In this document: piece after piece, positions 2,671 through 36,629 of the stretch
How the letters are laid out: every line of letters begins with the position of its first letter
How positions within the stretch are numbered: position 1 is the stretch's first letter
Assembly: GCA_046328265.1 (NCBI GenBank)
Contig: JAXLWW010000001.1
Span: 565,414 to 629,413 of the forward strand
Source of the DNA: Dehalococcoidia bacterium
Lineage (GTDB): Bacteria > Chloroflexota > Dehalococcoidia > SpSt-223
Length of the DNA: 64,000 nucleotides
Reading direction: 5' to 3'
Position numbers and translations under genes: made by a program
Notes under the pieces: generated by a model
What the model was told of the DNA's origin: nothing
The model's database searches: none
The model's input: only the letters and a program-made list of their open reading frames with translations

Positions 2671-3483
2671 ATGGCCGACGGAACGCCGACCACGCTCTTT
2701 GGACGCATCATCTGCCGCGCCGTCGTCGAGGTCGAAACCGGGCTGCACGTCGGTGCAAGCACCGCAAGTGGCGCCGTGACCGGGCTGGACTTCCCGGTGG
2801 TGCGCGACGCTTTGACCGGCCAGCCGTACTTGCCAGGGTCGTCGCTCCGCGGGAAGTTGCGCGCCGAAACGGAGCGACTACTCGGGCTTGCGCCAAATGC
2901 GTCGGGCCGTGGCGGCCCGCAGTTCTACGTTCCGCAGAACCAGGCTGACTACGATTCAAACCCGATCGGCCGGTTGTTCGGCGTGCCAGGTGCTCGTTCG
3001 TTTCGGGTGGATGCCGCGGCCCGGCTGGTTGTGCGCGACGCCTTCCTGACACCGGACAGCGCTGCCGCGCTCAAACGAGCACGCACCGACCTCCCCTATA
3101 CCGAGGTGAAGGCCGAAGCCGCGGTCGACCGGATCACCGCTGAAGCGTTGCCTCGCCACATCGAGCGTCTGCCGGCGGGAGCGCGTCTCGGTCCGCTCGA
3201 ACTGGTCTACAGCGTCTATACCGCCCAAGACCTCGCCGATTTCACCTGGGTCGCTCGCGGCCTGCAACTGGTCGAGGACGACTATCTCGGCGGGCATGGA
3301 TCGCGCGGCAGCGGGAAGGTGCGATTCCGCGATATCGAGGTGGTGGTCCGGTCGCGCGCTGCCTATCGTGGGGAGGAGGGCGGCGCATTTGACCCTCGGA
3401 GGTTCGACGATGTCGGCACGTTGATTGCTGGTCTCGACGAACTCACGGGAGCGATCCGGACGGCGCTGGCGCTGCCCGCGTGA
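2671..3483 (+). CDS. csm3: Csm3 (Cas7-family RAMP backbone subunit). The putative target-RNA cleavage Asp is retained.
   Basis: Strong SD (GAGGAGG) 7 nt upstream of the ATG. Hallmark motifs GLHVGAS, GLDFPVVRD (Asp-containing loop), YLPGSSLRGKLR (Cas7 G-rich segment) and the C-terminal glycine-rich loop GGHGSRGSGKV. Confidence 0.85.
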   Translation: MADGTPTTLFGRIICRAVVEVETGLHVGASTASGAVTGLDFPVVRDALTGQPYLPGSSLRGKLRAETERLLGLAPNASGRGGPQFYVPQNQADYDSNPIGRLFGVPGARSFRVDAAARLVVRDAFLTPDSAAALKRARTDLPYTEVKAEAAVDRITAEALPRHIERLPAGARLGPLELVYSVYTAQDLADFTWVARGLQLVEDDYLGGHGSRGSGKVRFRDIEVVVRSRAAYRGEEGGAFDPRRFDDVGTLIAGLDELTGAIRTALALPA

Positions 3484-4409
3484 ACCTGACGCTGCTTCGC
3501 CTTCAGCCGAGAGGGCCGTTCCATTTTGGGACCGACCACACCGGTGCGCCTGCGCCGGTGATCGGCTCGGATACCCTCTTTAGCGCGGTTTGTCTGGCCC
3601 TGCGCGACCTGTTTGGTCCGGTGCGGCTGACCAGCTTCGTTCGGGTGGTGCGCAGTGCCGCCGACCCGCCGTTGCGGCTCTCGAACGCGATGCCCTTTTC
3701 GGGGAACGTGCTCTTTCTGCCCGCACTTTCAGGGGATGGCTGGGTCTCGCAGTCGCTATTTGAGGCGCAGATCGCCGGCGAGCCGCTACCAGAAACGCGG
3801 CACTTGCAGGCCGGCTGGCTTCAGGCATGCGAAGCCGACGACCTGCCAGTGGAGCGAGTATGGACGGTCGATCGCCGGCGACGGGTGCGGCTCGGAGCAG
3901 GAACGCCGGAGCCGTTCGAGGACAGCGCTGTGCGCTTTGCCTCCGGCTGCGGACTGGCAGTGCTGGCGTTGATCGACGCTGAGTGGCGGGACGACGTGCT
4001 TGCGGCGATCCGCTCGCTTGGTGACAGCGGGATTGGCGGACGGCGTTCGACCGGCGCTGGACAGTTCGATCTGGCGGTCGAATCACTCGACCTCCGCGTG
4101 CCGGATGCGCCGACGGCCTACTGTACGCTGTCGTATTACCTACCATCCGCACGTGAGCTTGAGCAGGGTGTCCTGAACGAGCCGGCTCACTACCGGATCG
4201 ACGACCGGACCGGCTGGACGAGCGGGCCAGCCGGCAGCTTTCGACACCGTTCGGTTCGGATGATTACCGCTGGTAGTGTCGTCGCGCCGGTTGACTCCCG
4301 GCCGCCGGTTGGTCGGCTCGCCGACGTCACACCGACGGGCTTTCGTGATCACGAGGTACTTCGCGCCGGTTGGAGCTTCCCCATCGGCGTTCGGGGTGGC
4401 GCTGCATGA
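3480..4409 (+). CDS. csm4: Csm4 (Cas5-family RAMP). GTG start overlaps the csm3 TGA (GTGA).
   Basis: N-terminus LLRLQPRGPFHFG...GSDTLFSAVCLAL matches the Csm4 signature (hSDTLFSAL). Glycine-rich loop GDSGIGGRRSTGAGQF. 4-bp overlaps with both neighbours. Confidence 0.8.
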   Translation: MNLTLLRLQPRGPFHFGTDHTGAPAPVIGSDTLFSAVCLALRDLFGPVRLTSFVRVVRSAADPPLRLSNAMPFSGNVLFLPALSGDGWVSQSLFEAQIAGEPLPETRHLQAGWLQACEADDLPVERVWTVDRRRRVRLGAGTPEPFEDSAVRFASGCGLAVLALIDAEWRDDVLAAIRSLGDSGIGGRRSTGAGQFDLAVESLDLRVPDAPTAYCTLSYYLPSARELEQGVLNEPAHYRIDDRTGWTSGPAGSFRHRSVRMITAGSVVAPVDSRPPVGRLADVTPTGFRDHEVLRAGWSFPIGVRGGAA

Positions 4410-5923
4410 GCGATGTGGCCCGCAACTACCGGCTCGTCGTCGACGTTCTGTCGCCGCTGGCGATTGGCTCAGGTGATTTGCCGCTTCTTCCGGAGTACGA
4501 CTACCTCGCGGACGAGGGTGCGCTGCTGGTGTACACCGCGGCGGCTGCGCGTGGTGATGATGGGCGATTGTATGGACGGCCCGACCCGGCCTATCGGCTG
4601 CCGTTTGGCGGCGTCGAGACCCGGGTCCGCTCCGACCGGTGATCAAGGACGTTCTTGGCGCTCCCTACCTGCCGGGAGCGCCCTGAAGGTGCGCTGCATA
4701 CCGGCATCGCCTCGGCTCTTCTCGAACGTGAGCGCGCGGTCGGCCGTCCGCTCAAGAAGGACGATATTGCGCCATCGGCGCGGTTCGCTGCGCAGCCAGT
4801 CGAGCGTCGGCTGTTCGGTGCACAGCCGCGAGCGAGCGGGTTGCGCGCGTTGCGAGTGAGTGACGCGATTGCCACCGAGGGAACGCGCCTCGCGCTCGCC
4901 GCCGTCCGCACCTGTGGGGTCGACGAGGGGAAGCTGGCCGCGTTATCCGAGAGGTTGGCGATCGAGGTGATCGCGCCTGGTGGGCGACTGGTCGGGTCCC
5001 TGACGATCGACGGCTCGTTCCTCGAGCAGACCGGCACGCGTTTCGAGGGAACGCCCAATCGCGGCGAGATCGGCGAGACGATCGCGCTTGCTCGCGAAGA
5101 AGGCCGTCGCCGGGCGGCCGCCGAGCGCGCCTATTTTGCGAGCGCAGGCGCGTCGGCTCTGGTTGCGTTGTTCGATGGGCTGCTCGCGTTGATCGGTACG
5201 GCCGGTGAGAACACCATGCTGGTCCAACTGGGCTGGGGAGCCGGTTGGGATTCGAAGAGCTTTGGCCCGGCGTTGACGGCCAGCGGCGACTGGCCGGCGA
5301 TCCGCGAGGAGTTCTTCGGTGGGCGAGGACGGCGCCCGGACCGCGGACGCTCTGGCGAGCGGCCACGTCCCGGCGAACGACGCTCTGGCGGTGGACGCCG
5401 TCCATCTGGGTTTCCGTCGACGCGCAAACTGGCCGATCAGGCCGGAGGACCGGGCTTTCCGCTTGGCTGGGCGCTTGTCTCTCTTGTTCCCGTCGGTGAG
5501 GCACTTCCGCTCCAAGCAACGATGCCAGCCGCCTGGCAGGATGACGCGTTCTTGGTCCAGGAGCGGGGCGCCGGTGGCGCACCAAGTCGCGCTGTTGAAA
5601 GTGTCGCACCGGCGTCGCCTTTCGCCGCGCTTCAGGCGCTGCTTAGTCCGCAGGCCGCGCCTGAGGAGCAGGGCGAGTCCGCACCTCCTCCGCCGATCGC
5701 CCGAATCGCCGATCGGGCGCTGAAAGTGGGGACGATACTCGACGCCGAGGTGGTCACGATCGAGGCGGCCAGGATCTTGGTCGATGTCGGGCGGACCGAC
5801 CCAGCCGCCCTTGATGCGGCGACCATCGGTGGCGGCAACCTCGAGGTGCGCTACCAGGTCGGACAGCGCCTACGGGTGCGGGTCATTACGCCGCCACCCT
5901 TCTTCCGCATCCGGTTGAGCTAA
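4406..5923 (+). pseudogene. csm5: Csm5 (Cas7-family RAMP) with its reading frame broken inside the conserved G-rich motif. ATG overlaps the csm4 stop (ATGA).
   Basis: N-terminal ORF MSDVARNYRLVVDVLSPLAIGSG... (Csm5-type LSPLHIGSG) ends at TGA 4640-4642. The hallmark ...VIKDVLGAPYLPG / SALK / GALHTGIASALLE... is spread over three reading frames within 4636-4700. A 422-codon ORF then resumes (4655-5923) carrying Csm5 C-terminal features (RALRVSD, LVQLGWGAGWDSKSFG) and an RG-rich insert. Confidence 0.7.
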
Positions 5924-8457: not shown

Positions 8458-8529
8458 GCCGACGTAGCTCAATGGTAGAGCAGCGGTTTTGTAAACCGCC
8501 GGTTGCGGGTTCGAATCCCATCGTCGGCT
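8458..8529 (+). tRNA. tRNA-Thr (anticodon UGU).
   Basis: Cloverleaf: acceptor GCCGACG/CGTCGGC, D-arm GCTC-AATGGTA-GAGC, anticodon stem GCGGT/ACCGC with loop TTTGTAA (TGT), T-loop TTCGAAT, discriminator T. CCA not fully encoded. Confidence 0.9.
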
Positions 8530-8550: not shown

Positions 8551-8638
8551 GGTAGGGTGGCCGAGTGGTTAATGGCGTCGGTCTGTAAAACCGATGGGCG
8601 GAAGCTCTACACTGGTTCGAATCCAGTCCCTACCACCA
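8551..8638 (+). tRNA. tRNA-Tyr (anticodon GUA), type II with long variable arm and encoded CCA.
   Basis: Acceptor GGTAGGG/CCCTACC, anticodon loop CTGTAAA (GTA), long variable arm TGGGCGGAAGCTCTACAC, T-arm ACTGG-TTCGAAT-CCAGT, 3' ACCA. Confidence 0.9.
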
Positions 8639-9247: not shown

Positions 9248-9439
9248 TCATGGCTTCTTTGCGTTGCGCTTGCCGATGCGATCGAGCACCTTCGACAGCA
9301 GATACGCTAGGCCGAGCGCCGCCACCGTTCCCACCGCGTAGCTGAGCAGTTCGTCCGGTCCAAATTGGCCGTCGTGGAGCGGATATGCCGCCGGCAGACT
9401 GAGGAGAACTGTATACATGCCGCGGATAGTGTAGTCCAT
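9248..9439 (-). CDS. Hypothetical small membrane protein (63 aa).
   Basis: ORF with one or two hydrophobic helices and a basic C-terminus. No homology recognised. Confidence 0.25.
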   Translation of the reverse strand: MDYTIRGMYTVLLSLPAAYPLHDGQFGPDELLSYAVGTVAALGLAYLLSKVLDRIGKRNAKKP

Positions 9440-9459
9440 CAGCGGGGGCGCTGTCCGGG

Positions 9460-9936
9460 GTGGTATACTTGCCTATGCCCTCGAAAGAAGCTGGTGAGCC
9501 GCTTGCGGTCAACCGGAAGGCGTTTCACGACTATTTCATCGACGAGACGTTCGAGGCAGGTCTGGCGCTGACCGGCACCGAGATCAAGTCCGTGCGTAAG
9601 GGGAATATCAACCTGCGCGAGGGCTATGTTCGGCCGGAAGGCGGCGAGATGTGGCTGCTCGGGGTGCATATCGCACCGTACGAGCAGGGGAACATTTACA
9701 ACCACGACCCGAGGCGACGGCGTAAGCTACTGCTCCACCGGCGCGAGATTGTCGAACTCTCGGCCAAGGTGAAGGAAAAAGGGCTGACGCTCGTGCCGCT
9801 GCGGGTCTACATCAAGAACGACGTGGCAAAGCTGGCATTTGGCCTGGCGCGCGGCAAGAAGCAGCACGACAAGCGCGATGCCATCGCCGAGCGCGATGCC
9901 AATCGTGAGATTGAACGGGCGCTCAAAGTCCACTGA
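9460..9936 (+). CDS. smpB: SsrA-binding protein SmpB. GTG start at 9460, alternative ATG at 9475.
   Basis: AVNRKAFHDYFIDETFEAGLALTGTEIKSVR and GYVRPEGGEMWLLGVHIAPY match the SmpB consensus. Followed directly by the tmRNA gene. Confidence 0.9.
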   Translation: MVYLPMPSKEAGEPLAVNRKAFHDYFIDETFEAGLALTGTEIKSVRKGNINLREGYVRPEGGEMWLLGVHIAPYEQGNIYNHDPRRRRKLLLHRREIVELSAKVKEKGLTLVPLRVYIKNDVAKLAFGLARGKKQHDKRDAIAERDANREIERALKVH

Positions 9937-9963: not shown

Positions 9964-10317
9964 GGGGACGCCAGGTTTCGACAGAGGGGGAAGTGACGCG
10001 ATTGCGAGCCGAGGAAGCCGATCCACTCGTAAACGATTCGGCGTGCCATAACTGGCAACACCAACTACGCTCTCGCCGCCTAAACAACGGTGACGTCTAC
10101 CCTCTCCTCATCCCGGCGGGCGGGGAGTGGGCGCCATGCAGCCGGGATGCTCGCCCGTTGACGTCGATAGGACGGGCGCTAAGACCCATCGGCTAGCCCG
10201 GAGGAACCCCGTCGGTGGGGGACCTTCAGGCGAAGCTCTAAATCGCCGACTACGCTCGTAGATATCGCGCAGTGATCTGCTCTGGACGGGGAGTTCGATT
10301 CTCCCCCGTCTCCACCA
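9964..10317 (+). ncRNA. ssrA: tmRNA (ssrA), 354 nt. Encoded tag ...NTNYALAA followed by TAA.
   Basis: 5' GGGGACGCCAGGTTTCGAC... and 3' ...GGACGGGGAGTTCGATTCTCCCCCGTCTCCACCA form a tRNA-Ala-like acceptor/T-arm with the G3:U wobble. Internal ORF ggc aac acc aac tac gct ctc gcc gcc taa at 10052-10081. Confidence 0.9.
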
Positions 10318-12505: not shown

Positions 12506-14558
12506 CTATGCTCGGGACGGCTCCTCTGCAGCATTTCTTCCGGCGTTGTAGCCCTGCGGGATGCACCGGCCCAGACCGTGCTGGGTCGTGCTGGCGGCGC
12601 ACTCGCCGGCAGCGTAGAGGCCGGGGATGATGGCGCCGCGAACGTCCTTCACCTGCATCTTCCCGTTGATCCAGATGCCACCAATGGTGTCGTGCAGCAT
12701 GATCGACGTCCAGGCGGCGTAGAACGGCGGTGCGTCAACCTTGTAAAGGGCTTGTTCTTCCCGAAGTCCTCATCCTCGCCCTTGTCAACCAAGGAATTCC
12801 AGCGCCGGAACGTCTCTTCGAGATTCGCCGGCGGCATGGGGATTTTGGACTTTGGCGATGTGCTGATCTTGGACGCCAGTTCGGCCAGCGTATTCGCGCT
12901 GAAGAAGTAGCCGTCCTCGGCGGTGTAGGGGGGCTTGATGTCCCATTTCTGACGCGTCACCGCCGCCGAGCGTCGAAGATGGCCCAGACACCGCCGGCAT
13001 CGTAGTCCGGCGCGGTCGAACCCTCGTTCATCATGACCGAGGCATCGGTCCAGCTATTCTTGTTGTACTTCTGCCTCATCCAGTCAATGCTGCAGTTCCG
13101 CCAATCCCACTGAACGAATTTTTCCGGCAGCGCTACGCGACCGGGCGGGTAGGCGGCTTCCGTTGGGTACCCGCCAGATTCCTCACGGTAGAAGCGCTTG
13201 CCAACCTGGTTGACGCAGATGACGTGTGGCCAGCCGGCAGAGCCAATATCGAGTCCGGACGATCGGGCAAAGGGGAAAACCGGCGACTTGGGGTCAACCT
13301 GATAGTACGGGTGCTGGGTGCCGATCACACTCCGCTTGCGCATCACAGCTTCAGTTTCATAGCTTGCAATGATGCCGGCAAATGCTTGGCCGCCAATTTC
13401 CGCGACGGCAATATGCCCCAAGCCGCTCTGACCGTTTTCGCCCGCGTATGGAGCGTTGGTCACTTGCAGCGCTTCAGGCCATCGCACATCCCAGATCTTG
13501 CGGAGTGTCTTGTTGCCCATCGGTCCGTTGGTGGCAATGATGACCGCCTTCTTGGCTTTGATGTTGACCGTGGGCTTGGTGGTATCGATGTTACCATCGG
13601 TGCGGAGGGGTTTCATGAGGGTGGTGCTGTTGGGGAGGGTGCGGGGAGAGTATTGCGCCCGAATGCCGATGACCGGTCCGGAGAGCGGCTGCTCCCGATA
13701 CAGTTGGTCGAACAAGTAGCTGAGAAGGAACTGGACACCCTTCTTCCGGGCGCTGTCCTCGAGCGGCCGAATAAGGCCGACACCGGTCTGGCCGGGCGGG
13801 TTCATGGCGCTTGCCTCGCCTTGCGCTTCGTGGACGGTTTGGGCCCGCCGGGAGGCAGAAACACCCGACTGACCATGGGCGCCGGAGAGGTCGGCGAATT
13901 TCACGCCGTTCGCCAGCAGGAAGTTGCGTACGGGGACCGCGGAGTCAGCAGCGACGCGGGACAACTCCCGGTCGTTAAATCGGTAGGTCCCTTTGCCTCC
14001 CTCGGTGACCGCAGACCAGTCCACCAGGTCCCGGAAGAGAATATCCGGCGAATCTGGACCGCCGAAGATGGTCTTGGTTCCTTCCTTCTGTTGGAGCGCA
14101 TCGTTGGCGCCAAGGGCGATGAACGACCCACTGGCCATCGCCCGTCCACCAACGTCGTAGTTCTGGTCCACCACGATAACTGATGCTCCGCTATCTCTGG
14201 CACTGATGGCAGCAGGCATTCCTGCGGCGCCGGACCCGATGATGACGACATCGGCTTCATAGTCCCAGGTGGTGGGATTCGCCGAACGTGCGACTGCGAC
14301 GGCGGTGCTGCCGCTCACCGCAACCGGGGTGGGCGGTGCGCTGGTTGCGACAGGAATCGCTTGTTGCGCGTCACTGGTGCAGGCTGCCAGCAGCGGGGCG
14401 CTAACCGAGACCCCCGCAACAGCCATCCCCGTGCGCTTTACAAACTCACGTCTTGTTACGCCACTGGGTGTCCCATTATCGTTGTTTTTTTTGTACCCAT
14501 GATGGCTATCTCCCGAAGAGAATTCAGACTGCTGTATACTAATCCTGAAGCGTGACAT
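12506..14558 (-). pseudogene. FAD-dependent oxidoreductase (KstD/fumarate-reductase flavoprotein-like) with a Tat signal and lipobox. The reading frame is broken twice near the 3' end.
   Basis: Start MSRFRIS...TRREFVKRTGMAVAGVSVSAPLLAAC (twin-arginine signal plus LAAC lipobox). FAD dinucleotide fold VVIIGSGAAGMPAAISA. The C-terminal homology continues in two other frames: ...WAIFDARRR* then TRQKWDIKPPYTAEDGYFFSANTLAELA...FGKNKP, then LYKVDAPPFYAAW...HDTIGGIWINGKMQV...IPGLYAAGECA. The second shift looks like a 1-nt indel in a C-run; the first lies in a CGG-repeat region. Confidence 0.7.
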
Positions 14559-14642
14559 TGTCAATCCTCTGTCAAAAAAAGAGTTCAGGGTCAGTGGGAT
14601 GAACTGATGCGGTGGGCGTGAATTGGGTGTAATCCCGGTGTC

Positions 14643-15400
14643 ATGCCACCGTTGCCGAACCTGAGTGGGTTGTCGCGAAGCGAGTTGGAAGCCCTGGTCG
14701 TGTCGTTGTACGCCGAGCAGTTCGAGGCGTGGGCGCCGGCCTTGGAAGGTCGCCTCAAGAGGGGCGGTCCACCAGCCAGCCTGCCCAACGCCAAGCCGCA
14801 GTCTCCGCCCGATCGGCCACCGAAGGCCCGTAAGCCGCGACCCCAACCGAGGTCGTCGTTCATGCCTTGGACACCTGTCCGGACTGCGGCGTCCACGTGC
14901 TCGGTGGCTGGGTCCAGCGGCGACGCGAAGTCATCGACCTGCCACCGCCCACCATTCGGGTCATCGAGCATCAGTTCGTCGCCCGAACCTTTCCGCTCTG
15001 TCGCAAACGGGTGACGCCGCCGGCGAGCGGGTTGGACGGCCTGCGGGTTGGCAGGCAGCGGTAGAGTTCCCCTCGGGTGAACTTCTTGGCGACCCTTCGC
15101 GAGGTGGGCCGGCGACCGGTCAAGACGGTGCAATGGCTGGTCCGGACGCGCTCCGGGCCTGCAGGTGAGCCTCGGGGCGATGGTGGCCACGCGGACCCAG
15201 CCGTAGCAAGCACGAACAATGCTGCCGAACGCAGCCCGCGTCACCTCGCCGTCAGTCGGAAGAACAGCGGGGGTACACGCTCGCTGGTGGGTAACGACAC
15301 CACGATGGCGCTGGCGACGCTCTTGGGCGCTTGCTGTCTGCGTCGGCTGGTCCCGCTCAGCCAAGTGCTTGGCGTTCTCGTTTCCCCGAAGCGCTGAATC
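14643..15400 (+). mobile_element. Decayed IS66-family transposase (TnpC) remnant: N-terminal coiled-coil, zinc-finger segment and C-terminal TNNAAER region in different frames, central DDE region missing.
   Basis: Frame a: LSRSELEALVVSLYAEQFEAW...KARKPRPQ. Frame b: CPDCGVHVLGGWVQRRREVIDLPPPTIRVIEHQFVARTFPLC (IS66 CPxCG...RVIEH...C motif). Frame c: TNNAAERSPRHLAVSRKN...LLGACCL (IS66 C-terminal TNNAAERALRP.AIGRKNWLF...TCKLNG motif, degraded). Confidence 0.7.
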
Positions 15401-18792: not shown

Positions 18793-19902
18793 ATGATGCA
18801 TTCATCGCAACGCGAGGAGGGAAGCGTGCGGATCGGGATCGCGTCGAGTCTCCGACCGATGCCGGGCGGCAGTTGGCAGGATTCGGTTGACAATCTGCGC
18901 TGGGTTGCCCAGTTTGCGGACCGCCATGGCTACCACGCCCTTTGGATGACCGAGCATCACTTCTTCGATCAGATCGGGACCGGGTCGCCAAATCTCCTGC
19001 TCGGCCATCTCGCAGCCTTCACTACCCGGCTGCGGCTGGGTGTTACGGTCAATCTGCTGCCGTTTCACCATCCGGTGCGGCTGGCCGAAGACCTTCTCTT
19101 GCTCGATCAAGTGAGTGGCGGTCGGCTGGACATCGGGATCGGCCGCGGTCATGCTCCGCTCGAGGTCGCGGTGCTTTCGCGCGATGCCGATCGCTCACGC
19201 GAGCTTTTCGACGATGGGTATCAGATCCTCGCTCACGCCTTTACCGGCGAGCCATTCGCCTTCGAGGGAATAACGACCAGTCTGCCACGCATCCAGGTGT
19301 TCCCGGGGCCGGTCCAGCGGATTGATCGGGCGGTGCCATTTTCCGGCCCGCCCTTCTACATGCCAATCACCTCGCCGCAGTCAATCGCCTACGCCGCCGA
19401 GCATGGGATCATCCCGCTGGTCGGCTATAGCAACCCCGAGCAGATAGCGGCATCGGTTCGCAACTTCGAGGCTGCGGCGGCGGCCGCCGGGGTCGGCGAG
19501 GAGCAACTCACCTGGGCGCTCGACCGGGTGGCAACCAACCGCCCGGTCTGCGTGGCCGACTCGCGCGACGAGGCCGAAGAATACATCCGCAGCCAGAGCG
19601 CCTACAGCCGGTATACCTTCGAAATGTGCCGTCTACCGGTCGGCGATCCGGGCTACACGCCCGAAGTCCCGCATCTTCCCCCCTACGACGGGCCAATCGA
19701 CGATCGCGGCGGCGCGATCTTCGGCACTCGCGATGATGTCGTCGAACGGATCCGAGACCTGGGAACTCTGGGCGTCCGCCAACTGGCGGTTGCCTTCGGG
19801 TTCTACACACCGGCCACGGTCTTCCGCCGCCAGCTTGAGCGGTTCACCGAGGAGGTCATGCCGCTGGTTTCCCAGAACAGTCTGCCCCATGGAGGACGCT
19901 GA
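18793..19902 (+). CDS. LLM-class flavin/F420-dependent oxidoreductase.
   Basis: HALWMTEHHF, LRLGVTVNLLPFHHPVRLAEDLLLLDQVSGGRLDIGIGRGH is the LLM TIM-barrel signature. Confidence 0.8.
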   Translation: MMHSSQREEGSVRIGIASSLRPMPGGSWQDSVDNLRWVAQFADRHGYHALWMTEHHFFDQIGTGSPNLLLGHLAAFTTRLRLGVTVNLLPFHHPVRLAEDLLLLDQVSGGRLDIGIGRGHAPLEVAVLSRDADRSRELFDDGYQILAHAFTGEPFAFEGITTSLPRIQVFPGPVQRIDRAVPFSGPPFYMPITSPQSIAYAAEHGIIPLVGYSNPEQIAASVRNFEAAAAAAGVGEEQLTWALDRVATNRPVCVADSRDEAEEYIRSQSAYSRYTFEMCRLPVGDPGYTPEVPHLPPYDGPIDDRGGAIFGTRDDVVERIRDLGTLGVRQLAVAFGFYTPATVFRRQLERFTEEVMPLVSQNSLPHGGR

Positions 19903-21488
19903 TGCGCGCCGGCTTGGTTCGTCTCTCGCTTCTGTCGATGGTGATTGTGGCAGCCTGTGCGCCGGCGCCGACCTCGTCAATTCCGCCGCCGCCGGCCGTA
20001 CCGGGCGATGTTCGCGAAGAACAGCAGATCCTGCGCGCTGCCGTGAGCGGGTTGCCCGCGAACATGACACCCCAGGTCTCCGCTTCGGCCTTCTATATGT
20101 TCTGGCCTTTTTACGACAACCTGACCCAGTTTGGCCCGAATTTCGAGCCACGACCGGCTGTGGCGGAAAAATGGTCGCTCTCGGCTGACGGACTGACCTG
20201 GACCTTCACCATTCGCAAGGACATGAAATGGACCGACGGTTCGCCGCTTACTGCTGAGGACGTCGCCTTTACCTTCTCGCAGGTCGTCGACTCCGGCTGG
20301 CCGCAACGATCCTTCTTTACAACCGTCACCGGCGCGAAGGCGATCAACGATACCACCGTTGACGTGACGACCCGGACGGTCGACATGAGCGTGCCAAACG
20401 GCGGAGCGTTCTTTTGGGTGGTGCCAAAGAAGTATTTCGAGTCGGTCGGTGGTTTCAACGGGTTCCGCGACAAGCCGATGGGGTCCGGACCGTACGAACT
20501 CGTCGACTTCAAGGCGAACGACCAGATTCGATTCCGGAAGAAGAGCACGCCCCATGCCTATCGGCGGGCGATCGCCGATGAAATTCAACTGCGGGCGATC
20601 CCTGAGCCGATCCAGTTGATCAACGGACTGCGGACCAATGAGATCGACATCGTCCCCTTCACCAACCTGACCGCCGAGAACGCCGAAGGACTGCGTCGGT
20701 CGGGAATGGTGGTGAATGCCTTCCACGTTTCGAATGTCTCGTACTCGATCCCGCAAGGGCCAAACGAAGTCCGTCAGTCGCCTTTGCGCGACAAGCGGGT
20801 CCGGCTGGCGCTCAACTATGCGGTCAACAAAGAAGCGATCGCCAAGACGGTCTATCGTGGCTTTGCCCAGCCGGTCGGTCAGTTTGCCGTCCCCGGAAGT
20901 GTCCTCTGGGATCCAGAAATCAAGCCCTTCCCCTACGACCCGGCAATGGCAAAACGGTTGCTGGCCGAAGCGGGTTACCCGAACGGTTTCAAGCTTCCCT
21001 ACGGGCTGGACTTTTCGCCAATGAGCCTGCAAGACACGGTGCTGGCGGTGCATGGTGACTTGTTGGCGGTCGGCGTCGAGGCTGACCTGAGGAACAACGA
21101 GAACGCGGTCATGCAAGACAAGATCTTTGGCCGCAACAATCAGCTACTGGGTGACATTTATGCCGGCGGGACCGGCGACCAGAATGGCTTTGGCGCAACC
21201 GTCCGGACCACCAATGGCTGCGGCAGGCCCGCCGGCGCGCCTGCCAACAACGTCTGGTATTGCAACCCGGAATGGGAGCGCGTCTTCGACCAACTCTACA
21301 CCGAGCGCGACGCCGCAAGGCGCCAGCAACTGGGTCGTCAGGTCACCGCTATCTTCCGTGAAGACGTGCCGGCGATCTTCGTGGTGCTGTCGCCGCTCTA
21401 TGTCGTCCACACGTCAAAGGTCCGTGACGTTCAGGTGCCGGCATCGATCGGCAACTGGAATATGGATTCGGTCTACAAGGTGAAATAG
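19902..21488 (+). CDS. ABC-transporter substrate-binding lipoprotein, family 5 (DppA/OppA/NikA-like). No permease or ATPase genes adjacent.
   Basis: Lipoprotein signal ...IVAACAP. 528 aa. Conserved SBP_bac_5 blocks (GSGPYELVDFKANDQIRFRK, ALNYAVNKEAI). Confidence 0.85.
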   Translation: MRAGLVRLSLLSMVIVAACAPAPTSSIPPPPAVPGDVREEQQILRAAVSGLPANMTPQVSASAFYMFWPFYDNLTQFGPNFEPRPAVAEKWSLSADGLTWTFTIRKDMKWTDGSPLTAEDVAFTFSQVVDSGWPQRSFFTTVTGAKAINDTTVDVTTRTVDMSVPNGGAFFWVVPKKYFESVGGFNGFRDKPMGSGPYELVDFKANDQIRFRKKSTPHAYRRAIADEIQLRAIPEPIQLINGLRTNEIDIVPFTNLTAENAEGLRRSGMVVNAFHVSNVSYSIPQGPNEVRQSPLRDKRVRLALNYAVNKEAIAKTVYRGFAQPVGQFAVPGSVLWDPEIKPFPYDPAMAKRLLAEAGYPNGFKLPYGLDFSPMSLQDTVLAVHGDLLAVGVEADLRNNENAVMQDKIFGRNNQLLGDIYAGGTGDQNGFGATVRTTNGCGRPAGAPANNVWYCNPEWERVFDQLYTERDAARRQQLGRQVTAIFREDVPAIFVVLSPLYVVHTSKVRDVQVPASIGNWNMDSVYKVK

Positions 21489-21508
21489 CGACCAGGAGGG
21501 TTCGTCCG

Positions 21509-22591
21509 ATGCGGATCGGGATCGGCACCACGCTCTGGCGTACCTGCGGCCATCCAGACTGGGACAAAGGAAACGACGCCTGGCCGAGCGAGATCGAACA
21601 TCTCATGTGGCAGGCGCGAATCGCCGACGAAGGCGGCTTCGACAGCGTCTGGCTGACCGAACATCACTTTTCCCATTGGTCTTCGGCGAGCGCCCCCTCG
21701 GTCATCCTCACCAACATGGCCGCGATAACCAGGCGGGTTCGGATTGGCTACGGCGTCGCCTTGGTGCCGTTCCACCACCCGGTGCATCTCGTGTCGGAGA
21801 TGCTCTGGGTGGACCAACTGAGCCGCGGCAGGCTCAACGTCGGATTGGGCCGCGGCCACGTCGCGTTGGAGGCAGCCGCCTTCGGAGCCAACCCAGATAC
21901 CAGCCGCCGCTCATTCGAAGAGGCGATGGAGGTGATCGTCCCGGCGTTGGAGGGTCGGCCGACGCCGAAGATCGATGGCGAGGTCTGGAAGATCCCCTCT
22001 CTGGAGATCACACCCGGCCCATTTCAAAAGCCACGACCGCCGATCTACATCGTCGCCACGTCCGACCATTCGTTGCGCTACTCGGCGCGGTGGCGCGCTC
22101 ATCCGATCTTTGGGATCGATAGCGCGGCAGGGTTAAAGCGGCAGATGGACCGCTTCCGCGAGATCGCGGCCGAAGGGGGCTTGGGCGAGACAGAAACCGA
22201 TCATCTGCTTTCGAATGCGAAGGCGACGCGGAAACTGATCGTCTCGCCTAGCCGAGCGGAAGCAGAGGAAGAATCGTTGCGGAGCCTCGCCGAACTCCAT
22301 CAGGCCTACCTTCGCGGGTTGCACCAGCCAGGCGACCCATCGCTTTGGGGTCCCTGGCGGCCGGTTACCGCTCAAGCTTTCTATGAGGAGTCTGCCGCCC
22401 CGATGCGCGGTGGCGAGCGGCATCATGTCTTCTGTGGGACACCGGACGATGTGGTTGAACAGATTCGCGCCTTCGAGGACGAGACCGGGATCCACCTTAT
22501 CTCGACCGCCGTCTCATCGCCGGGCATCGATCGGGCGTTTTGCGAGCGCAACCTGCGGTTGCTGATCGACGAAGTGCTGCCGCGGGTGTAG
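21509..22591 (+). CDS. LLM-class flavin/F420-dependent oxidoreductase (second copy in this cluster).
   Basis: DSVWLTEHHF..., VALVPFHHPVHLVSEMLWVDQLSRGRLNVGLGRGH. Confidence 0.8.
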   Translation: MRIGIGTTLWRTCGHPDWDKGNDAWPSEIEHLMWQARIADEGGFDSVWLTEHHFSHWSSASAPSVILTNMAAITRRVRIGYGVALVPFHHPVHLVSEMLWVDQLSRGRLNVGLGRGHVALEAAAFGANPDTSRRSFEEAMEVIVPALEGRPTPKIDGEVWKIPSLEITPGPFQKPRPPIYIVATSDHSLRYSARWRAHPIFGIDSAAGLKRQMDRFREIAAEGGLGETETDHLLSNAKATRKLIVSPSRAEAEEESLRSLAELHQAYLRGLHQPGDPSLWGPWRPVTAQAFYEESAAPMRGGERHHVFCGTPDDVVEQIRAFEDETGIHLISTAVSSPGIDRAFCERNLRLLIDEVLPRV

Positions 22592-22671: not shown

Positions 22672-23610
22672 CTAACAAGCCCCTTGATTGTTCTGTTCGG
22701 TGGGCGATGGTTCTAGTTCGTGAGTTTCGAGAACGATCCACCCGTCGCCTTTGACTGCATTCTTGCCAACGTGGATAACCTCCCCCCATCTTAGCCAGGG
22801 GAGCAAGGGGGAGAGATCGCCGCGCCAGGTGGCCTGGCCAACGAGACCGCCGGTAGGAGTGACGCGACCCGAGCGGCGCGATCCGCTCCAGGTATCCCGC
22901 CAACGGGTAGAGTCCTCCATCAACACGGCTGCGCTTGCCGGTCTGCCAAGGTCGTGATCGAGCGAACGCCAGGCTTCGGGCGGTGGCGGACCGTCGCCAT
23001 AGAGGGTCGAGAGTGCCTCGACCCGCTCGAGGAGCCGACGTAGGAGAATACTCAGGTCAGGGCTTCGGACGAGCGCCCCGCGCTCGGTCAGGCGTAGAGG
23101 CGTCTTGAGGTCAATGGTGAGTGCGCTTGCTGCGCCGCCGGCTACCACATCGTCCGTTACGTCACCGTCTTGGTTGTCGCGCGGCGAGCGGCGCATGACC
23201 GAATCGAGTACCGAACGTCCGCGGCCACGACCAATCCCGTGCTCGGCGGCAAGCACAATTGCTGTGCTGACCGCGTCTTCGAAATCAATGGCCGGCCCAA
23301 TCAGGGTAACGCCGACGCGCCAGGTTTCGCCGACGGCTGCCGTCGCGTTCTCAGGTTCGATTGTGAAGGGGCGAGGTAGATCGCGCCCACGCGGCCAGGC
23401 CGGGTCGGTCCCACCCACCAGCAAGCAGAACGGACATGTTTGACGATGGTCTGGGTTGGGGGCGGGACCGTCGGGACAGGCAAGAGCACGAAGCGCGGTG
23501 ACGAACGCGCCGCGGAGCGCCGAGCCGGGATTGCTTCCCAGGTCGATCAGGTCGAAAGCACGCAGGGTAAACCAAAGCCGCCGCGCTCGCAGCCCGGTCT
23601 GGAGCGTCAC
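22672..23610 (-). CDS. Cas6-like RAMP-fold protein (solitary). GTG start overlaps the aceE stop (GTGA).
   Basis: N-terminus RLWFTLRAFDLIDLGSNPGSALRGAFVTALRAL and C-terminus GLVGQATWRGDLSPLLPWLRWGEVIHVGKNAVKGDGWIVL resemble the Cas6 pattern (G.vG.v...gd..l..ll.lgE..hvGk.t..G.G), including the G-x5-G-x-G glycine-rich loop. No CRISPR repeats adjacent. Identification is from remembered family signatures only. Confidence 0.45.
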   Translation of the reverse strand: MTLQTGLRARRLWFTLRAFDLIDLGSNPGSALRGAFVTALRALACPDGPAPNPDHRQTCPFCLLVGGTDPAWPRGRDLPRPFTIEPENATAAVGETWRVGVTLIGPAIDFEDAVSTAIVLAAEHGIGRGRGRSVLDSVMRRSPRDNQDGDVTDDVVAGGAASALTIDLKTPLRLTERGALVRSPDLSILLRRLLERVEALSTLYGDGPPPPEAWRSLDHDLGRPASAAVLMEDSTRWRDTWSGSRRSGRVTPTGGLVGQATWRGDLSPLLPWLRWGEVIHVGKNAVKGDGWIVLETHELEPSPTEQNNQGAC

Positions 23611-25994
23611 GCCGCGAGATCGAGTGCCGCAAACGCTGCGGCGATGATCGCGTCGGCGTCAATGCCGAAATGGCGATAGAGGTCGGCACGCGTCCCGGAT
23701 TGACCAAACTGATCGACGCCCAATGGAACGACCGGAGCGCCGAAGATGCCACCCAGAAAGGCAAGGCCGTGTGATGCGCCATCGGCGACGGTGACGATTG
23801 GCGCTCGCCGCTCGTCCCCCGGAATGAGTGTCTCCAACTGGCCGAGGCTGCTCGTCCCGCCGGCGCGCTGATGGCGTCGTCCGGCTGTTGCCGATACAAA
23901 GAGCCGGTTTGCGCTGGTGATGGCCAGAACGTTGGCCGCGACGCCTTCCCGGTGCAGTCGGCGAGCGGCCTCGACCGCCTCCGGAGTCATGGTTCCAGCG
24001 ACGGCGATCTGGACGATTGCCGACGGATCCGTGTCGGGCGCATCGTAGCGAGCGTCAATCAGCCGATAGCCGCCGGTCAGGACCTGACGCCGAAGCTCCT
24101 GTTCGCCGAGTCTGGCGAGCGCGCCATCGAGCAGTTGTTGGGCCAATGGTTTTGTTGAGAGCCGCAGATATGTGGAGCGCCCGTGCTTGCGGTCGGCGCA
24201 CTGACGCAGAGCTTCGAGCAGGATCCATTCGACTTCGCGGGCAAAAGCCGGCTCGTAGCTGATCAGGTTTGGCAGTTCCAGGCCGAGAGATGGAGTGACG
24301 GTCGATTGGTGTGCTCCACCTTCCGGGCTGAGCGAGATCCCAGACGGCGTACCGACGACAATGAACTTTGCTTCCGAATACAGACCGTGGATAAAGGCGT
24401 CCAACCCGCGAAGGACAAAGGGGTCGTAGACGGTCCCGATCGGGAGCAGAAGTTGGCCCAACAACTCTTGAGAAAGCCCGAGTTGCTCGAGCAGCAAGAA
24501 CAGGTTCATTTCCGAGATGCCAAGCTCGATGTGCTGGCCGGTTGGGCTGGGCTGCCAGCGTACCGGTTGCGGGCCCGTCTCGAAACTGTCCTCACCGGTC
24601 GCACTATAGACCCCGACGCGGTTGATCCAGCCGCCAAGGTTGGTCGAGACCGCGACGTCCGGCGCGACGGTGACGATCCGGGCGCCGATTTCCGGCAGGC
24701 GCGACAGTTCGACCAGCAACCGGCCGAGCGTCTCCTGAGTTGAGGTGATGGAAAGCGGGCGATGATCGATCTGGGGCGGGATGTCGTCGGGCGTCAGGGC
24801 AAGCACGTCGGATGGTTCGGCTGGTTCGCGAAGCCGGTTGGTCGCACGCTGACACAACTCCGCCTCGAGCGTGCCGCTCGGAAAGCGCGGCCATTCGTCC
24901 TCCGACGGGATACCCAGTCGAACCGCCAAGTCCTCCACCTGCTTGCCGGTCAGCAGGGCCGAATGGTTGAGCGGGTGACCGGCAATCGGCAACCCCCAGC
25001 CCTTGATGGTGTAGGCGAACACGACGCTCGGACGGTCGCGAACGCTGGCGGCTTGGTGAAGCACTTTCAGCAGTTCGCCAATGTCATGGCCACCAAGGTC
25101 GCTCAGCAAGTCGGGAATATCGGCGTCTGCGAAGAGCGCGAGCGCGCGCTCGACGCCGGCTGGGTCATCCGACCCGACGATAAGGCGCTCGCGGCAAATC
25201 GCGCCAGGCAACCGGATCGCCGCCTGGTATTCCTCGTTGCTCATGTCGTCAATTCGGGTGCGAAACGCTGCCCCACCTGGTCCAGCGAACACCTGCTGCA
25301 GTCGTCGGCCATATTTCGCTTCGACGACATGCCAGTCGCTGTCGCGAAACAGGGCTTGGAGTTGGCGGGCACGGATACCCGGGACGACCCGGTCAAGGCT
25401 CTGTCGGTTGAGATCAACGATCCAGATGACATTGCCAACATCGCGCAGATGCTCCTCGGTCACGGCCTCCCAGACGTTCCCTTCGTCCAGTTCCGCGTCG
25501 CCGACGAGCGCGATATACCGGCGATCTTCTGGGCCGCCGAAGTGAAAGCGGACATAGCGATCGGCGAGGGCGGCAAAGGCCGGCGCGGCAGCGCCTAGAC
25601 CGACCGATCCTGTCGAAAAGTCCACCGGGTCCGGGTCTTTCGTTCGACTTGGGTAGGCCTGAAGTCCGCCGAAACTGCGCAGGGTGGTGAGGTAGCGACG
25701 GTCGAGATTACCCAGCAGGTATTGGACAGCGTGATAGGCTGGCGAGGCGTGCGGTTTGACCGCCACGCGATCACCGGCGCGGAGAAACGAAAAGTACAGC
25801 GCCGTCAACGTCGCGACCATCGATGCCGACGAAGCTTGATGGCCACCGACCTTGGTGCCATCGACATCAGGACGGAGATTGTTGGCGTGGTGGACGATGT
25901 TCGTCGATAGCCAGAGCACTCGGCGTTGGATCCGATCGAGTGCGGCAAGTTCCTCTGGAGACGGCAGCCAATCGTGTGCCGGAGCTTGACGCAT
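23607..25994 (-). CDS. aceE: Pyruvate dehydrogenase E1 component, homodimeric AceE type (ThDP-dependent). Start placed at the ATG with a strong SD; the longest ORF begins at GTG 26054.
   Basis: Blocks collinear with E. coli AceE: LDRIQRRVLWLSTNIVHHAN, GGHQASSASMVATLTALYFSFLRA, FSTGSVGLG, LVGDAELDEGNVWE, VIWIVDLNRQSLD, and C-terminal FGQSGTRADLYRHFGIDADAII. SD AAGGAGG lies 6 nt before ATG 25994. Confidence 0.9.
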   Translation of the reverse strand: MRQAPAHDWLPSPEELAALDRIQRRVLWLSTNIVHHANNLRPDVDGTKVGGHQASSASMVATLTALYFSFLRAGDRVAVKPHASPAYHAVQYLLGNLDRRYLTTLRSFGGLQAYPSRTKDPDPVDFSTGSVGLGAAAPAFAALADRYVRFHFGGPEDRRYIALVGDAELDEGNVWEAVTEEHLRDVGNVIWIVDLNRQSLDRVVPGIRARQLQALFRDSDWHVVEAKYGRRLQQVFAGPGGAAFRTRIDDMSNEEYQAAIRLPGAICRERLIVGSDDPAGVERALALFADADIPDLLSDLGGHDIGELLKVLHQAASVRDRPSVVFAYTIKGWGLPIAGHPLNHSALLTGKQVEDLAVRLGIPSEDEWPRFPSGTLEAELCQRATNRLREPAEPSDVLALTPDDIPPQIDHRPLSITSTQETLGRLLVELSRLPEIGARIVTVAPDVAVSTNLGGWINRVGVYSATGEDSFETGPQPVRWQPSPTGQHIELGISEMNLFLLLEQLGLSQELLGQLLLPIGTVYDPFVLRGLDAFIHGLYSEAKFIVVGTPSGISLSPEGGAHQSTVTPSLGLELPNLISYEPAFAREVEWILLEALRQCADRKHGRSTYLRLSTKPLAQQLLDGALARLGEQELRRQVLTGGYRLIDARYDAPDTDPSAIVQIAVAGTMTPEAVEAARRLHREGVAANVLAITSANRLFVSATAGRRHQRAGGTSSLGQLETLIPGDERRAPIVTVADGASHGLAFLGGIFGAPVVPLGVDQFGQSGTRADLYRHFGIDADAIIAAAFAALDLAA

Positions 25995-26072
25995 CACCCC
26001 TCCTTGGGAACATCGCGGTTCGCCCGAAAAGGGTACCACGTCACCTTGAACCACGAAGAAGCGGTGCGCGAG

Positions 26073-27440
26073 TTATTGCAGGAAGGGAAGCTCTAACACT
26101 GCCGCAGTAATTGGCTGGAAGATGAGCCAAGGCAGCAACCCGAGGAGAAGTGAGATGAGCGCGAGGAGAAGGAGCCCGACGGTTGCGCCGAGGCTTTCAC
26201 GAGCGACCACTTCGGCGGGTGGCCGTCCAAGGAAGATCGCCCGAAAGGCTCGAAGGAAGGCGAACAGCAGCATCAGGTTGACCGCGCTCAGGCCAAGGGC
26301 CAGCCAGGGATTTGAATCGACCGCCAAGCGCGCCAACACCCAACGGCCCGGGAATGCGGCGAACAGCGGCACGCCGCCGATCGTCAAGCTCGCCGCCAGA
26401 AACGCAAGAGCGGTGCCCGGAAGCTGAGCGATCAAACCGAGCGGGGAGCCGATCTCGACCGACCCGACTCGCCGCTCGAGTTGACCAACCAGCGCCCAGA
26501 GCATCACGACCGCCAGGAGATTCGCGACAAGCACCGCCACCGCCGCGGTCACACTCGATCCCGAGCCGACCGAAATGCCGTACAGGACAAACCCAAGCTC
26601 TGCCGAACTGCCGTAGACGATCAGCCGTCGCAAGTCGCTGGCATTGAGCGCCAGGAGCGCTCCGCCGGCCGCGGTCACAACCGCCCCCACGGCCATGATT
26701 GCCCGGTTGCGCTCGGGTAGCACCAGCCAGGGTGCATCCGCTAACGTCGAAAACACGAGGACGATCGCCGTGAGATTGATCACCGCACACGCCAGGACGA
26801 CTGCCGCCGGTGGTGCAATGAAGGCGAAATCGGGCAGCCACATCTGAAAGGGAAAGGCGGCAATACGAAGACCAATTCCAATGACCAGCAGCGCCAACAC
26901 CACCTGGGCGATGGTACGCGTCTCACCTGCAATGCGGGTCGTCTCAATCAATGCGAATGCTGCCAGCAGGCCAAGCGCCGAGACGGCGGTCAGGGTGAGA
27001 TACTTCGAGCCGGCGAGCGCTTCGCGCACCAGCGTCGTGGCGGCCGGTGTGCGTGCCGGCAGCATGAACAGGACGCACACCCCGGCAAGTTGTAGAAAGA
27101 GACTGGCAAGAAATGGGTTGGTGACCAGGGTTCCGCCGATTGCTGCGCCATTGACAAGCAGCGCGGTCGGCGCAACTGCACGCGACTCGCGCTCACCCAG
27201 TGCGCAGGCTCCGACGAAGCCGATGAGGATCAACGGGATGAACAGCCGATCAAGCGGCTGGACCAACAATTGGACGCCGCCCATTTGAATGCTGTCCTCG
27301 CTACTCGCCAAGACCGTCAACACAAACTGAGCCGCGGCGGTCATCACCGAGATCCCCAGCCCAGCGCGTCGCCCAAGCAAGAGCGCCAGCGGCGCAGCCA
27401 GCCAGGGGACGAGTACCGCCGCCAGCAGGTGAAGCGCCAT
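26073..27440 (-). CDS. Proton-conducting membrane transporter subunit (NuoN/MrpD-like antiporter-type).
   Basis: 455 aa, ~14 TM helices. Conserved FPFQMWLPDFAFIAPPAAVVLA motif of the NuoL/M/N (Proton_antipo_M) family. Confidence 0.75.
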   Translation of the reverse strand: MALHLLAAVLVPWLAAPLALLLGRRAGLGISVMTAAAQFVLTVLASSEDSIQMGGVQLLVQPLDRLFIPLILIGFVGACALGERESRAVAPTALLVNGAAIGGTLVTNPFLASLFLQLAGVCVLFMLPARTPAATTLVREALAGSKYLTLTAVSALGLLAAFALIETTRIAGETRTIAQVVLALLVIGIGLRIAAFPFQMWLPDFAFIAPPAAVVLACAVINLTAIVLVFSTLADAPWLVLPERNRAIMAVGAVVTAAGGALLALNASDLRRLIVYGSSAELGFVLYGISVGSGSSVTAAVAVLVANLLAVVMLWALVGQLERRVGSVEIGSPLGLIAQLPGTALAFLAASLTIGGVPLFAAFPGRWVLARLAVDSNPWLALGLSAVNLMLLFAFLRAFRAIFLGRPPAEVVARESLGATVGLLLLALISLLLGLLPWLIFQPITAAVLELPFLQ

Positions 27441-35552: not shown

Positions 35553-36629
35553 ATGGCACGGGGCACCACCCAATTCGAAGATATCGTTCGGCTTGACGAT
35601 GGCGACGCGCCGTACGACGAAATTTCCCAGGATGGCGAGCCAGGTGAGGCTGCCGACTATGTCGTCGATGATGAAGACGAGGACGATGCCGATTTGTATC
35701 CGGCGCCGCTCGACGATGAAGAACTCCCCAATGCCATCGGCGTCTATCTGCGCGACATCCGCCCAGTCAAGCTGCTGACCAAAGCCGACGAGCAGACGCT
35801 CGCAAAGGCAATTGAGGAGGGCGAGGCCGCCCGCACGTTGCTAAAGCAGGATGCCCTTTGCGCCGACACTCGGGCCGAAGCCGAGGCGTTGGTGGCCACC
35901 GGTGACGATTCACGCCGCCGCCTGACCGAGGCAAACCTTCGCCTGGTGGTCAACGAGGCGAAGAAGTACCTCAATCGGGGGCTTACACTCGGTGATCTGA
36001 TCCAGGAAGGAAACCTTGGGCTGATGCGCGCGGTCGAGAAGTTCGACTACAAGCGCGGCTTCAAGTTCTCGACCTACGCGACGTGGTGGATCCGTCAGTC
36101 AATCATGCGGGCGATCGCCGACCAGGCTCGAACGATCCGGATCCCGGTCCATATGATTGAGGCAATCAACAAGATGATGCGCGCCGCCCGGCGAATCCAG
36201 CAGGCGACCGGGCGCGAAGCCACGCCAGACGAGTTGGCTCGCGATCTCGAGATACCGGTTGCGAAGGTCATGCTGATCATCAAGGCGGCCCAGCGGCCTA
36301 TCTCCCTCGAAACGAAGATCGGCGACGAAGATGATGGTCTCCTCTCCGAACTTGTCGAGGACAAGACGGCCCTCTCGCCAGCGGAGGCGGCCACCCACGA
36401 AGTGCTTCGCAACGAAGTGACCGCGATGCTCGATCAGCTTTCCGAGCGCGAGAGGCGGATCGTCCAACTTCGGTTCGGGCTCCACGACGATCGGTCACGC
36501 ACCCTCGAGGAAGTCGCCCGCGAGGTCGGGCTGACCCGCGAACGGATCCGGCAGATCGAAGGTCAGGCGCTTTCCAAGCTGCGGCAGCAGCGCCACCTGC
36601 CCGGGCTCCGCGAGTACCTGCACGACTAA
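35553..36629 (+). CDS. RNA polymerase sigma-70 family factor (group 1/2, RpoD/SigA-like) with an acidic N-terminal region.
   Basis: Region 2 [37 protein letters not shown], region 3, and region 4 [27 protein letters not shown]. Confidence 0.85.

Follow-up and report, generated by a model that had tools for sequence, protein, structure and literature searches.

The window, by which we mean the whole stretch of 64,000 nt analysed here, begins with a type III-A csm cassette on the plus strand and carries, on the minus strand, a cas6 gene whose start codon overlaps the stop codon of a gene for a 2-oxoacid dehydrogenase E1. The main features are the following, L002 being a related locus that was used for comparison.

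3 to 2,162, plus strand: cas10/csm1 (PADLOC Cas10); its 5' end lies beyond the window edge, and no lesion is seen
2,155 to 2,655, plus strand: csm2 (PADLOC Csm2; 73% identity in tblastn with the Csm2 of L002), intact
2,671 to 3,483, plus strand: csm3 (PADLOC Csm3, E = 2e-58), intact
3,480 to 4,409, plus strand: csm4 (PADLOC Csm4, E = 6e-30), intact
4,406 to 5,923, plus strand: csm5 (PADLOC Csm5), disrupted, with an in-frame TGA at 4,640–4,642
5,924 to 26,072: segment inverted relative to L002, roughly 20 kb long (about 5.9–26.1 kb), delimited by gene-by-gene tblastn synteny
22,672 to 23,610, minus strand: cas6, 312 aa, GTG start; a CRISPR repeat endoribonuclease of the PF27225+PF10040 family
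23,607 to 23,610, minus strand: E1/cas6 junction GTGA, in which the TGA stop of E1 overlaps the GTG start of cas6 by 4 nt, as seen in the sequence
23,607 to 25,994, minus strand: 2-oxoacid dehydrogenase E1, homodimeric type (a ThDP enzyme), 795 aa; the "aceE" of an earlier, sequence-only reading of this DNA
26,030 to 26,038, minus strand: extended -10-like motif TGGTACCCT, about 45 nt upstream of the E1 ATG

The 312-aa ORF, the protein motifs quoted for it and the GTGA overlap, all described in the sequence-only reading, were found where it had placed them. RLWFTLRAF occupies residues 11–19 of the protein, ALRGAF residues 31–36 and EVIHVGKNAVKGDGW residues 277–291, and the glycine-rich loop HVGKNAVKGDGW near the C terminus spans residues 280–291 (window 22,738–22,773). 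At the junction, the plus strand reads TCAC at 23,607–23,610, that is, GTGA on the coding strand, an arrangement that suggests translational coupling of E1 and cas6. The gap to the csm genes, put at about 17 kb in that reading, measures 16,749 nt.

The E1 ORF extends upstream to a GTG at 26,054. The ATG at 25,994, which is preceded by the Shine-Dalgarno sequence AAGGAGG (26,005–25,999), is the likely start, and the 795 aa counted from it equal the length annotated by NCBI.

The remaining genes of the window are housekeeping genes, among them those for HisRS, PheRS beta, a sigma-70 factor, Lgt, an ABC transporter, smpB with tmRNA, and two tRNAs. On the plus strand, the tRNAs (8,458–8,529 and 8,551–8,635) and smpB (about 9,433–9,927), immediately followed by the tmRNA (9,964–10,317), all lie within the inverted segment. 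Convergent with cas6, at 18,793–22,591 on the plus strand, an SBP_bac_5 gene stands between two luciferase-like monooxygenase paralogues; the adjacency of cas6, luciferase-like and SBP_bac_5 genes is shared by the related locus L001, and in L093 and L094 the SBP_bac_5 gene directly follows cas6.

Identity, fold and family of Cas6

The ORF encodes a genuine, standard Cas6 endoribonuclease. The PADLOC Cas6 model PDLC01477 matches it over residues 7–295 (E = 1.1e-61), and its score against the Pfam family PF10040 (CRISPR_Cas6) is 48.3 bits, the cut-off being 25; none of the NCBIfam models matches it. An identical protein (100%) from a Dehalococcoidia MAG, MFN8532485.1, bears the NCBI name Cas6. 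The combination of PF27225 (AF_1859_N) and PF10040 is present in 112 of the 112 homologues found, and in an alignment of 37 family members the window protein retains all of the invariant (13/13) and near-invariant (24/24) columns. Within the glycine-rich loop, G282, G288 and G290 are invariant across these 37 members. A metagenome scan with a single Cas6 protein as query confirmed no relatives.

When the protein was compared with PDB sequences by phmmer, a single spurious match (E = 0.2) and no solved Cas6 were obtained. Because this search was uninformative, a comparison of folds was needed. The AlphaFold2 model, for which the alignment of the 37 family members served as input, has a pLDDT of 91.6 and a pTM of 0.89 and consists of two ferredoxin-like/RRM (RAMP) domains. 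In a Foldseek search of the PDB, the top 37 matches were all Cas6 proteins or Cas6 domains, the best with E = 3e-14 and a probability of 1.00, and the target-normalised TM-score reached up to 0.73. TTHB231, TTHA0078, the Cas6 proteins of Sulfolobus and S. thermophilus, and the Cas6 domain of a Cas6-RT-Cas1 protein were among the matches. The Cas6 call of the sequence-only reading is thus borne out by PADLOC, by PF10040, by AlphaFold2 with Foldseek and by the NCBI name; the check that it had proposed, by profile and by predicted fold, assigned the ORF to a Cas family and found the ferredoxin/G-loop fold present.

The solved Cas6 structures chosen for closer comparison were those of Thermus thermophilus (TTHB231/TTHA0078; 4c9d, 4c8y), Sulfolobus solfataricus (4ill) and Streptococcus thermophilus (6fjw). 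The window protein shares with them the two ferredoxin-like (RAMP) domains and the C-terminal glycine-rich loop, although its sequence identity to them is just 10–16%. It is also longer (312 aa, as compared with about 240–280) and, unlike them, has a conserved CPxC motif, and its Arg-Gly motif (ALRGA) stands at the position of the catalytic His37 of TTHA0078.

Outside the clade described below, relatives with 36–39% identity were found in Chloroflexota type I loci (L086–L089), where the gene order is cas8-cas7-cas5-cas3-cas6-cas1-cas2-cas4. Arrays lie directly downstream in these type I relatives, with 37-nt repeats in which a 4–5 bp hairpin is followed by ACTGAAAC. Hairpin repeats of this kind are the classical substrate of Cas6, which leaves an 8-nt 5' handle when it cuts them. 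For the Cas6 family, therefore, linkage to cas genes and to arrays is established by the type I loci, and in the clade cas6 ends the csm operon. The type I members and the window protein have the same two-domain architecture (PF27225+PF10040). Whereas the type I members follow cas3 and have arrays, the cas6 of the clade comes last in a type III-A csm operon, with E1 before it and with neither cas1/cas2 nor an array nearby. In two of the type I loci (L086, 7,561–10,972; L088, 7,564–10,990), cas6 comes after a cas3 of 808–815 aa, with an 8-nt overlap in L086 and a short gap in L088; this cas3 has the same position as the 795-aa E1 and a similar size, which is probably a coincidence. The identity, fold and family of the protein, and the type of its system, are all already known.

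The E1 gene and its neighbours

The upstream gene is a housekeeping gene. Its product aligns over its full length with the E. coli pyruvate dehydrogenase E1 (1l8a; E = 2e-39, residues 38–810 to 77–855), keeps the ThDP/Mg motif GDx(26)N as GDAELDEGN...DLNRQ, and contains the Pfam domains Transketolase_N, PDH_E1_M and Transketolase_C_1. More than 8000 homologues were found, the best of which, from Chloroflexota and Poribacteria, are 55–80% identical. A lipoyl-E2 gene directly follows E1 in seven of 80 loci, and in one further locus (L090) E2 is divergently adjacent. The full-length alignment, the ThDP motif and the E2 neighbours identify a genuine 2-oxoacid dehydrogenase E1. Its score against the aceE equivalog model TIGR00759, however, is 196.8 bits and so falls far below the cut-off of 859.9, which marks it as a divergent E1 and not the canonical aceE. 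The label "aceE" given in the sequence-only reading accordingly stands as far as an E1 of the homodimeric type is concerned, but not as the name of the canonical gene (197 vs 860 bits). Compared with E. coli AceE, with which it shares the full-length alignment and the ThDP/Mg motif, the window protein, some of whose family members have adjacent E2 genes, lacks about 70 N-terminal residues.

No Cas6 or Csm gene was found within 10 kb of E1 in any of the 80 loci from other lineages (0/80), nor in L090 and L091. The dN/dS values, which are upper bounds since dS is saturated, are about 0.09 for E1, about 0.12 for csm3 and 0.17–0.44 for cas6. The more than 8000 homologues, the E2 partners, the low dN/dS and the absence of cas linkage in other lineages mark E1 as a housekeeping gene. 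The recurrent linkage to cas genes expected of a CRISPR accessory is missing, since E1 is linked to them in a single narrow clade only. The co-occurrence of E1 and cas6 in related genomes, another check that had been proposed, was thus found within this clade and in none of the E1 loci elsewhere.

Upstream of E1, the motif TGnTAC[CG]CT is kept in four clade genomes (the window, L001, L002 and L084), as seen both in an alignment and in a motif scan. Similar motifs (TGnTACnnT-like) also precede E1 in the unrelated Chloroflexota loci L062, L074 and L090. A scan for consensus sigma-70 promoters and terminators around E1-cas6 gave nothing useful and did not call the TGGTACCCT motif. Judging by its position and conservation, TGGTACCCT may be an extended -10 promoter of E1's own, which would serve the E1-cas6 pair.

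Operon order, inversion and decay in the clade

Comparison with related Dehalococcoidia genomes showed where cas6 comes from. In L002/L003, the order is cas10-csm2-csm3-csm4-csm5-E1-cas6, on one strand and with the genes overlapping or closely spaced; the Cas6 of this locus is 51% and its E1 80% identical to the window proteins. The same gene order was found in L001 and L084. E1 and cas6 overlap by 4 nt in the window, in L002/L003 and in L093 (a short contig), and by 14 nt in L084. In L092 (positions 1–1,791), cas6 comes directly after csm5, 116 nt past the called (frameshifted) csm5 ORF, and there is no E1 between them; downstream, L092 has a FAD-binding protein 88% identical to that of window 12,957–14,846. 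The order in the relatives, together with the lack of E1 in L092, indicates that E1 was inserted into the cas operon and not that Cas6 was recruited to a metabolic operon. The most economical account is that E1 entered between csm5 and cas6 in the ancestor of the other clade genomes, so that L092 would probably represent the state before the insertion; a loss of E1 from L092, instead of a gain elsewhere, could also have produced this distribution. The alternative offered in the sequence-only reading, that a metabolic operon had recruited a RAMP-fold RNase, finds no support here: the movement went the other way, with E1 now sitting inside a cas operon.

The separation of cas6 from the csm genes in the window is due to one inversion. 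The csm genes of L002 are collinear with the window up to 5,920 (tblastn), and the genes for E1, Cas6, SmpB, a polyketide-cyclase-like protein, a luciferase-like protein and a short-chain dehydrogenase are then reversed in both order and strand relative to L002, from 26,015 down to 6,131. From 26,076 on, the antiporter-like genes are collinear with L002 again. The csm5 stop and the motif upstream of E1 therefore bracket one breakpoint; the antiporter-like gene at 26,073–27,440 (minus strand) has the other at its 3' end, so that E1-cas6 now stands 78 nt downstream of this gene on the same strand. Inverted repeats were searched for at the breakpoints, and none were found. Judged from this synteny, Cas6 appears solitary only because the inversion carried it off with E1.

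The gene set for a type III-A system is complete in the window, with a cas10 that has an HD domain and with csm2, csm3, csm4 and csm5. The state of the genes in the clade, in which all sequences come from MAGs, so that single frameshifts could be assembly errors, is as follows.

Window: csm2, csm3, csm4, E1 and cas6 intact; csm5 broken; cas10 without visible lesion (5' end outside)
L001 (GCA_026003895.1): cas10 to csm4 and cas6 intact; csm5 with one frameshift; E1 a pseudogene in four frame segments
L002/L003: cas10, csm2, csm3, csm4, csm5, E1 and cas6 all intact
L084 (GCA_026003915.1): cas10 and csm5 multiply frameshifted; csm3 and csm4 frameshifted; csm2 without frameshift; E1 and cas6 intact
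L092 (GCA_009612915.1): csm5 frameshifted; E1 absent; cas6 intact; cas10 to csm4 outside the view
L093: E1 partial (contig end), no lesion seen; cas6 intact; csm genes outside the view

Damage to csm5 was found in four of the five genomes (the window, L001, L084 and L092), with L002/L003 as the only intact case, and cas6 is intact in all six (6/6). The decayed stretches form a mosaic pattern (L084, 1,500–7,600; L001, 7,570–10,000). In the window, some 20 codons around the TGA of csm5 align with the L002 homologue only when read in a different frame; the gene is either disrupted, or two nearby indel errors in the MAG could have produced the same picture. An alignment with the Cas10 proteins of L001 and L002 showed that the HD motif LHDIG (window 33–47) is conserved. 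At the site of the Palm cyclase motif, the window has GADD (1,617–1,628), L002 has SADG and L001 has TTDG, instead of GGDD, and genes for CARF proteins or Csm6 are absent from the part in view. Because the cyclase motif is degenerate, cyclic-oligoadenylate signalling has probably been lost in this clade. With respect to known type III-A (Csm) operons with cas6, the clade has the same cas10(HD)-csm2-csm3-csm4-csm5 set, and cas6 adjoins the operon in the relatives. It differs from them in the E1 nested between csm5 and cas6 and in the cyclase motif (GADD/SADG/TTDG and not GGDD), and the window differs further in that csm5 is disrupted, the operon is split by the inversion, and no csm6/CARF gene, array or adaptation genes are in view. 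The type III module of the window looks decayed.

Neither Tandem Repeats Finder nor a search for spaced direct repeats detected CRISPR-like repeats in the 64 kb; the sequence-only reading had noted that no repeats flank cas6, and this holds for the whole window. The repeat end ACTGAAAC has only two matches in the window, which is the level of chance, and both are inside genes. In the relatives of the clade, no arrays were found near cas6 in the fetched flanks, which covered up to 10 kb on each side. Other cas genes are absent from the 64 kb. When ten ORFs at 35–49 kb were searched with PADLOC, no csm gene was found, and the sole match was "MzaA" at 35,553–36,629 (plus strand; E = 1.6e-56), which we rejected: by Pfam it is a sigma-70 factor (regions 1.2, 2, 3 and 4) and not a defence gene.

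Origin and present role of the E1-cas6 pair

The explanation that we favour, and consider highly probable as regards the identity and the history of the protein, is that the protein is a standard Cas6 whose gene originally closed the type III-A operon of the window, became the second cistron of a nested E1 and was displaced by an inversion. In the ancestor of the clade, E1 with its own upstream region would have landed between csm5 and cas6, and the stop codon of E1 would have come to overlap the cas6 start codon. In the window genome, about 20 kb would subsequently have been inverted, moving E1-cas6 to the opposite strand at a distance of 17 kb from csm5 and placing the pair just downstream of an antiporter-like operon. 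There, ribosomes that terminate at the end of E1 may reinitiate at the GTGA and go on to translate cas6, the second cistron of that mRNA. The protein would attach to a CRISPR repeat at its short hairpin and cleave at the base of the hairpin, giving the 8-nt 5' handle used by type I/III complexes.

Direct support comes from the profile and fold assignments, from the family's link to arrays, and from the gene orders that reveal the inversion and the descent from the operon; what we infer is the promoter, the coupling, and the present-day activity and substrate of Cas6. As to the substrate, it counts against this explanation that no array was found in the window or within 10 kb in the clade. The partner effector also looks impaired, csm5 being disrupted. 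Further points against it are the lack of repeats at the breakpoints, the promoter motif that the scanner did not call, and the risk of errors in MAGs. The proposal of the sequence-only reading, that Cas6 processes crRNA for the type III cassette, is upheld with respect to descent, cas6 being the last gene of the operon in L002/L003, L001 and L084. Its present service to the cassette is doubtful because of the disrupted csm5, the degenerate cyclase motif and the lack of a visible array; Cas6 may still serve the csm complex.

The intactness of cas6 beside damaged csm genes can be read in more than one way. Cas6 could be kept for the sake of a different CRISPR-Cas system or array in another part of the genome, whose crRNAs it would process, and not for the damaged csm cassette; this we regard as possible but rather unlikely. 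Such a role would fit a gene that is intact in 6/6 clade genomes and keeps all the conserved columns of its family, where csm5 is damaged in 4/5 genomes and all the csm genes of L084 except csm2 are frameshifted. It would also fit the type I linkage of the nearest Cas6 relatives outside the clade, and a dN/dS that stays below 0.45 even with saturated dS. The 64 kb, however, hold no further cas genes or arrays, and this reading overlaps the favoured explanation, differing from it only in the effector served. That Cas6 is instead a functionless remnant of a type III-A locus in decay throughout the clade, and the last part of it to have escaped damage so far, seems improbable to us. Independent lesions in csm5 (the window, L001, L084, L092), in cas10, csm3 and csm4 (L084) and in E1 (L001), the degenerate GGDD of Cas10 and the absence of an array nearby would all agree with it, and the highest dN/dS values of cas6 are those of pairs with L084 and L092. 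With some 9–10 frameshifts per 6 kb in L084, moreover, a gene of 0.9 kb would by our estimate escape with a probability of roughly 0.2–0.25. Against this, cas6 is intact in every clade genome although its amino-acid sequence has diverged by about 50%, and it keeps all 37 invariant or near-invariant columns, which would be unexpected under neutrality across so long a period.

The overlap of the two genes could also mark a selected unit, in which E1 is a functional type III accessory or Cas6 has taken on a role in partnership with E1. The overlap is indeed kept in the window, L002/L003, L084 and L093, the pair stayed together through the inversion, and L084 keeps intact only E1 and cas6. We nevertheless consider this highly improbable: cas neighbours are lacking in all of the other loci of the E1 family (80/80), its partner elsewhere is E2, the evolutionary rate of E1 is that of a housekeeping gene, E1 is a pseudogene in L001 while csm1–4 and cas6 are intact there, and it is missing between csm5 and cas6 in L092. 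A cyclic-oligoadenylate-controlled effector is, in addition, unlikely where the cyclase motif of Cas10 is degenerate, and we rejected E1 as an effector of this kind on the grounds of that motif, the distribution of E1 and the L001 pseudogene. A literature search on Cas6, type III systems and pyruvate dehydrogenase returned only unrelated papers, and none described a link between E1 and cas6. Very unlikely, too, is a non-defence role with E1 for which Cas6 would have been kept after the decay of the effector, for example the binding or processing of the E1 transcript or of another host RNA; if true, it would explain why cas6 is intact and overlapped wherever E1 is intact, and why the two travelled together through the inversion.

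On the favoured explanation, then, the apparent orphan Cas6 in a metabolic operon is a displaced standard Cas6 and should not be counted as a new context for a RAMP RNase. The unusual element is the E1 nested in the csm operon, with its stop codon overlapping the cas6 start, which we consider a lineage-specific accident and not a new mechanism. A housekeeping gene that is nested in a cas operon and overlaps cas6, to which it would be coupled, is a warning for screens that assign accessory genes through guilt by association. In this Dehalococcoidia clade, a type III-A locus can be seen at several stages of its gene-by-gene loss, with cas6 persisting, and the clade could show what selection keeps Cas6 once its effector is gone.
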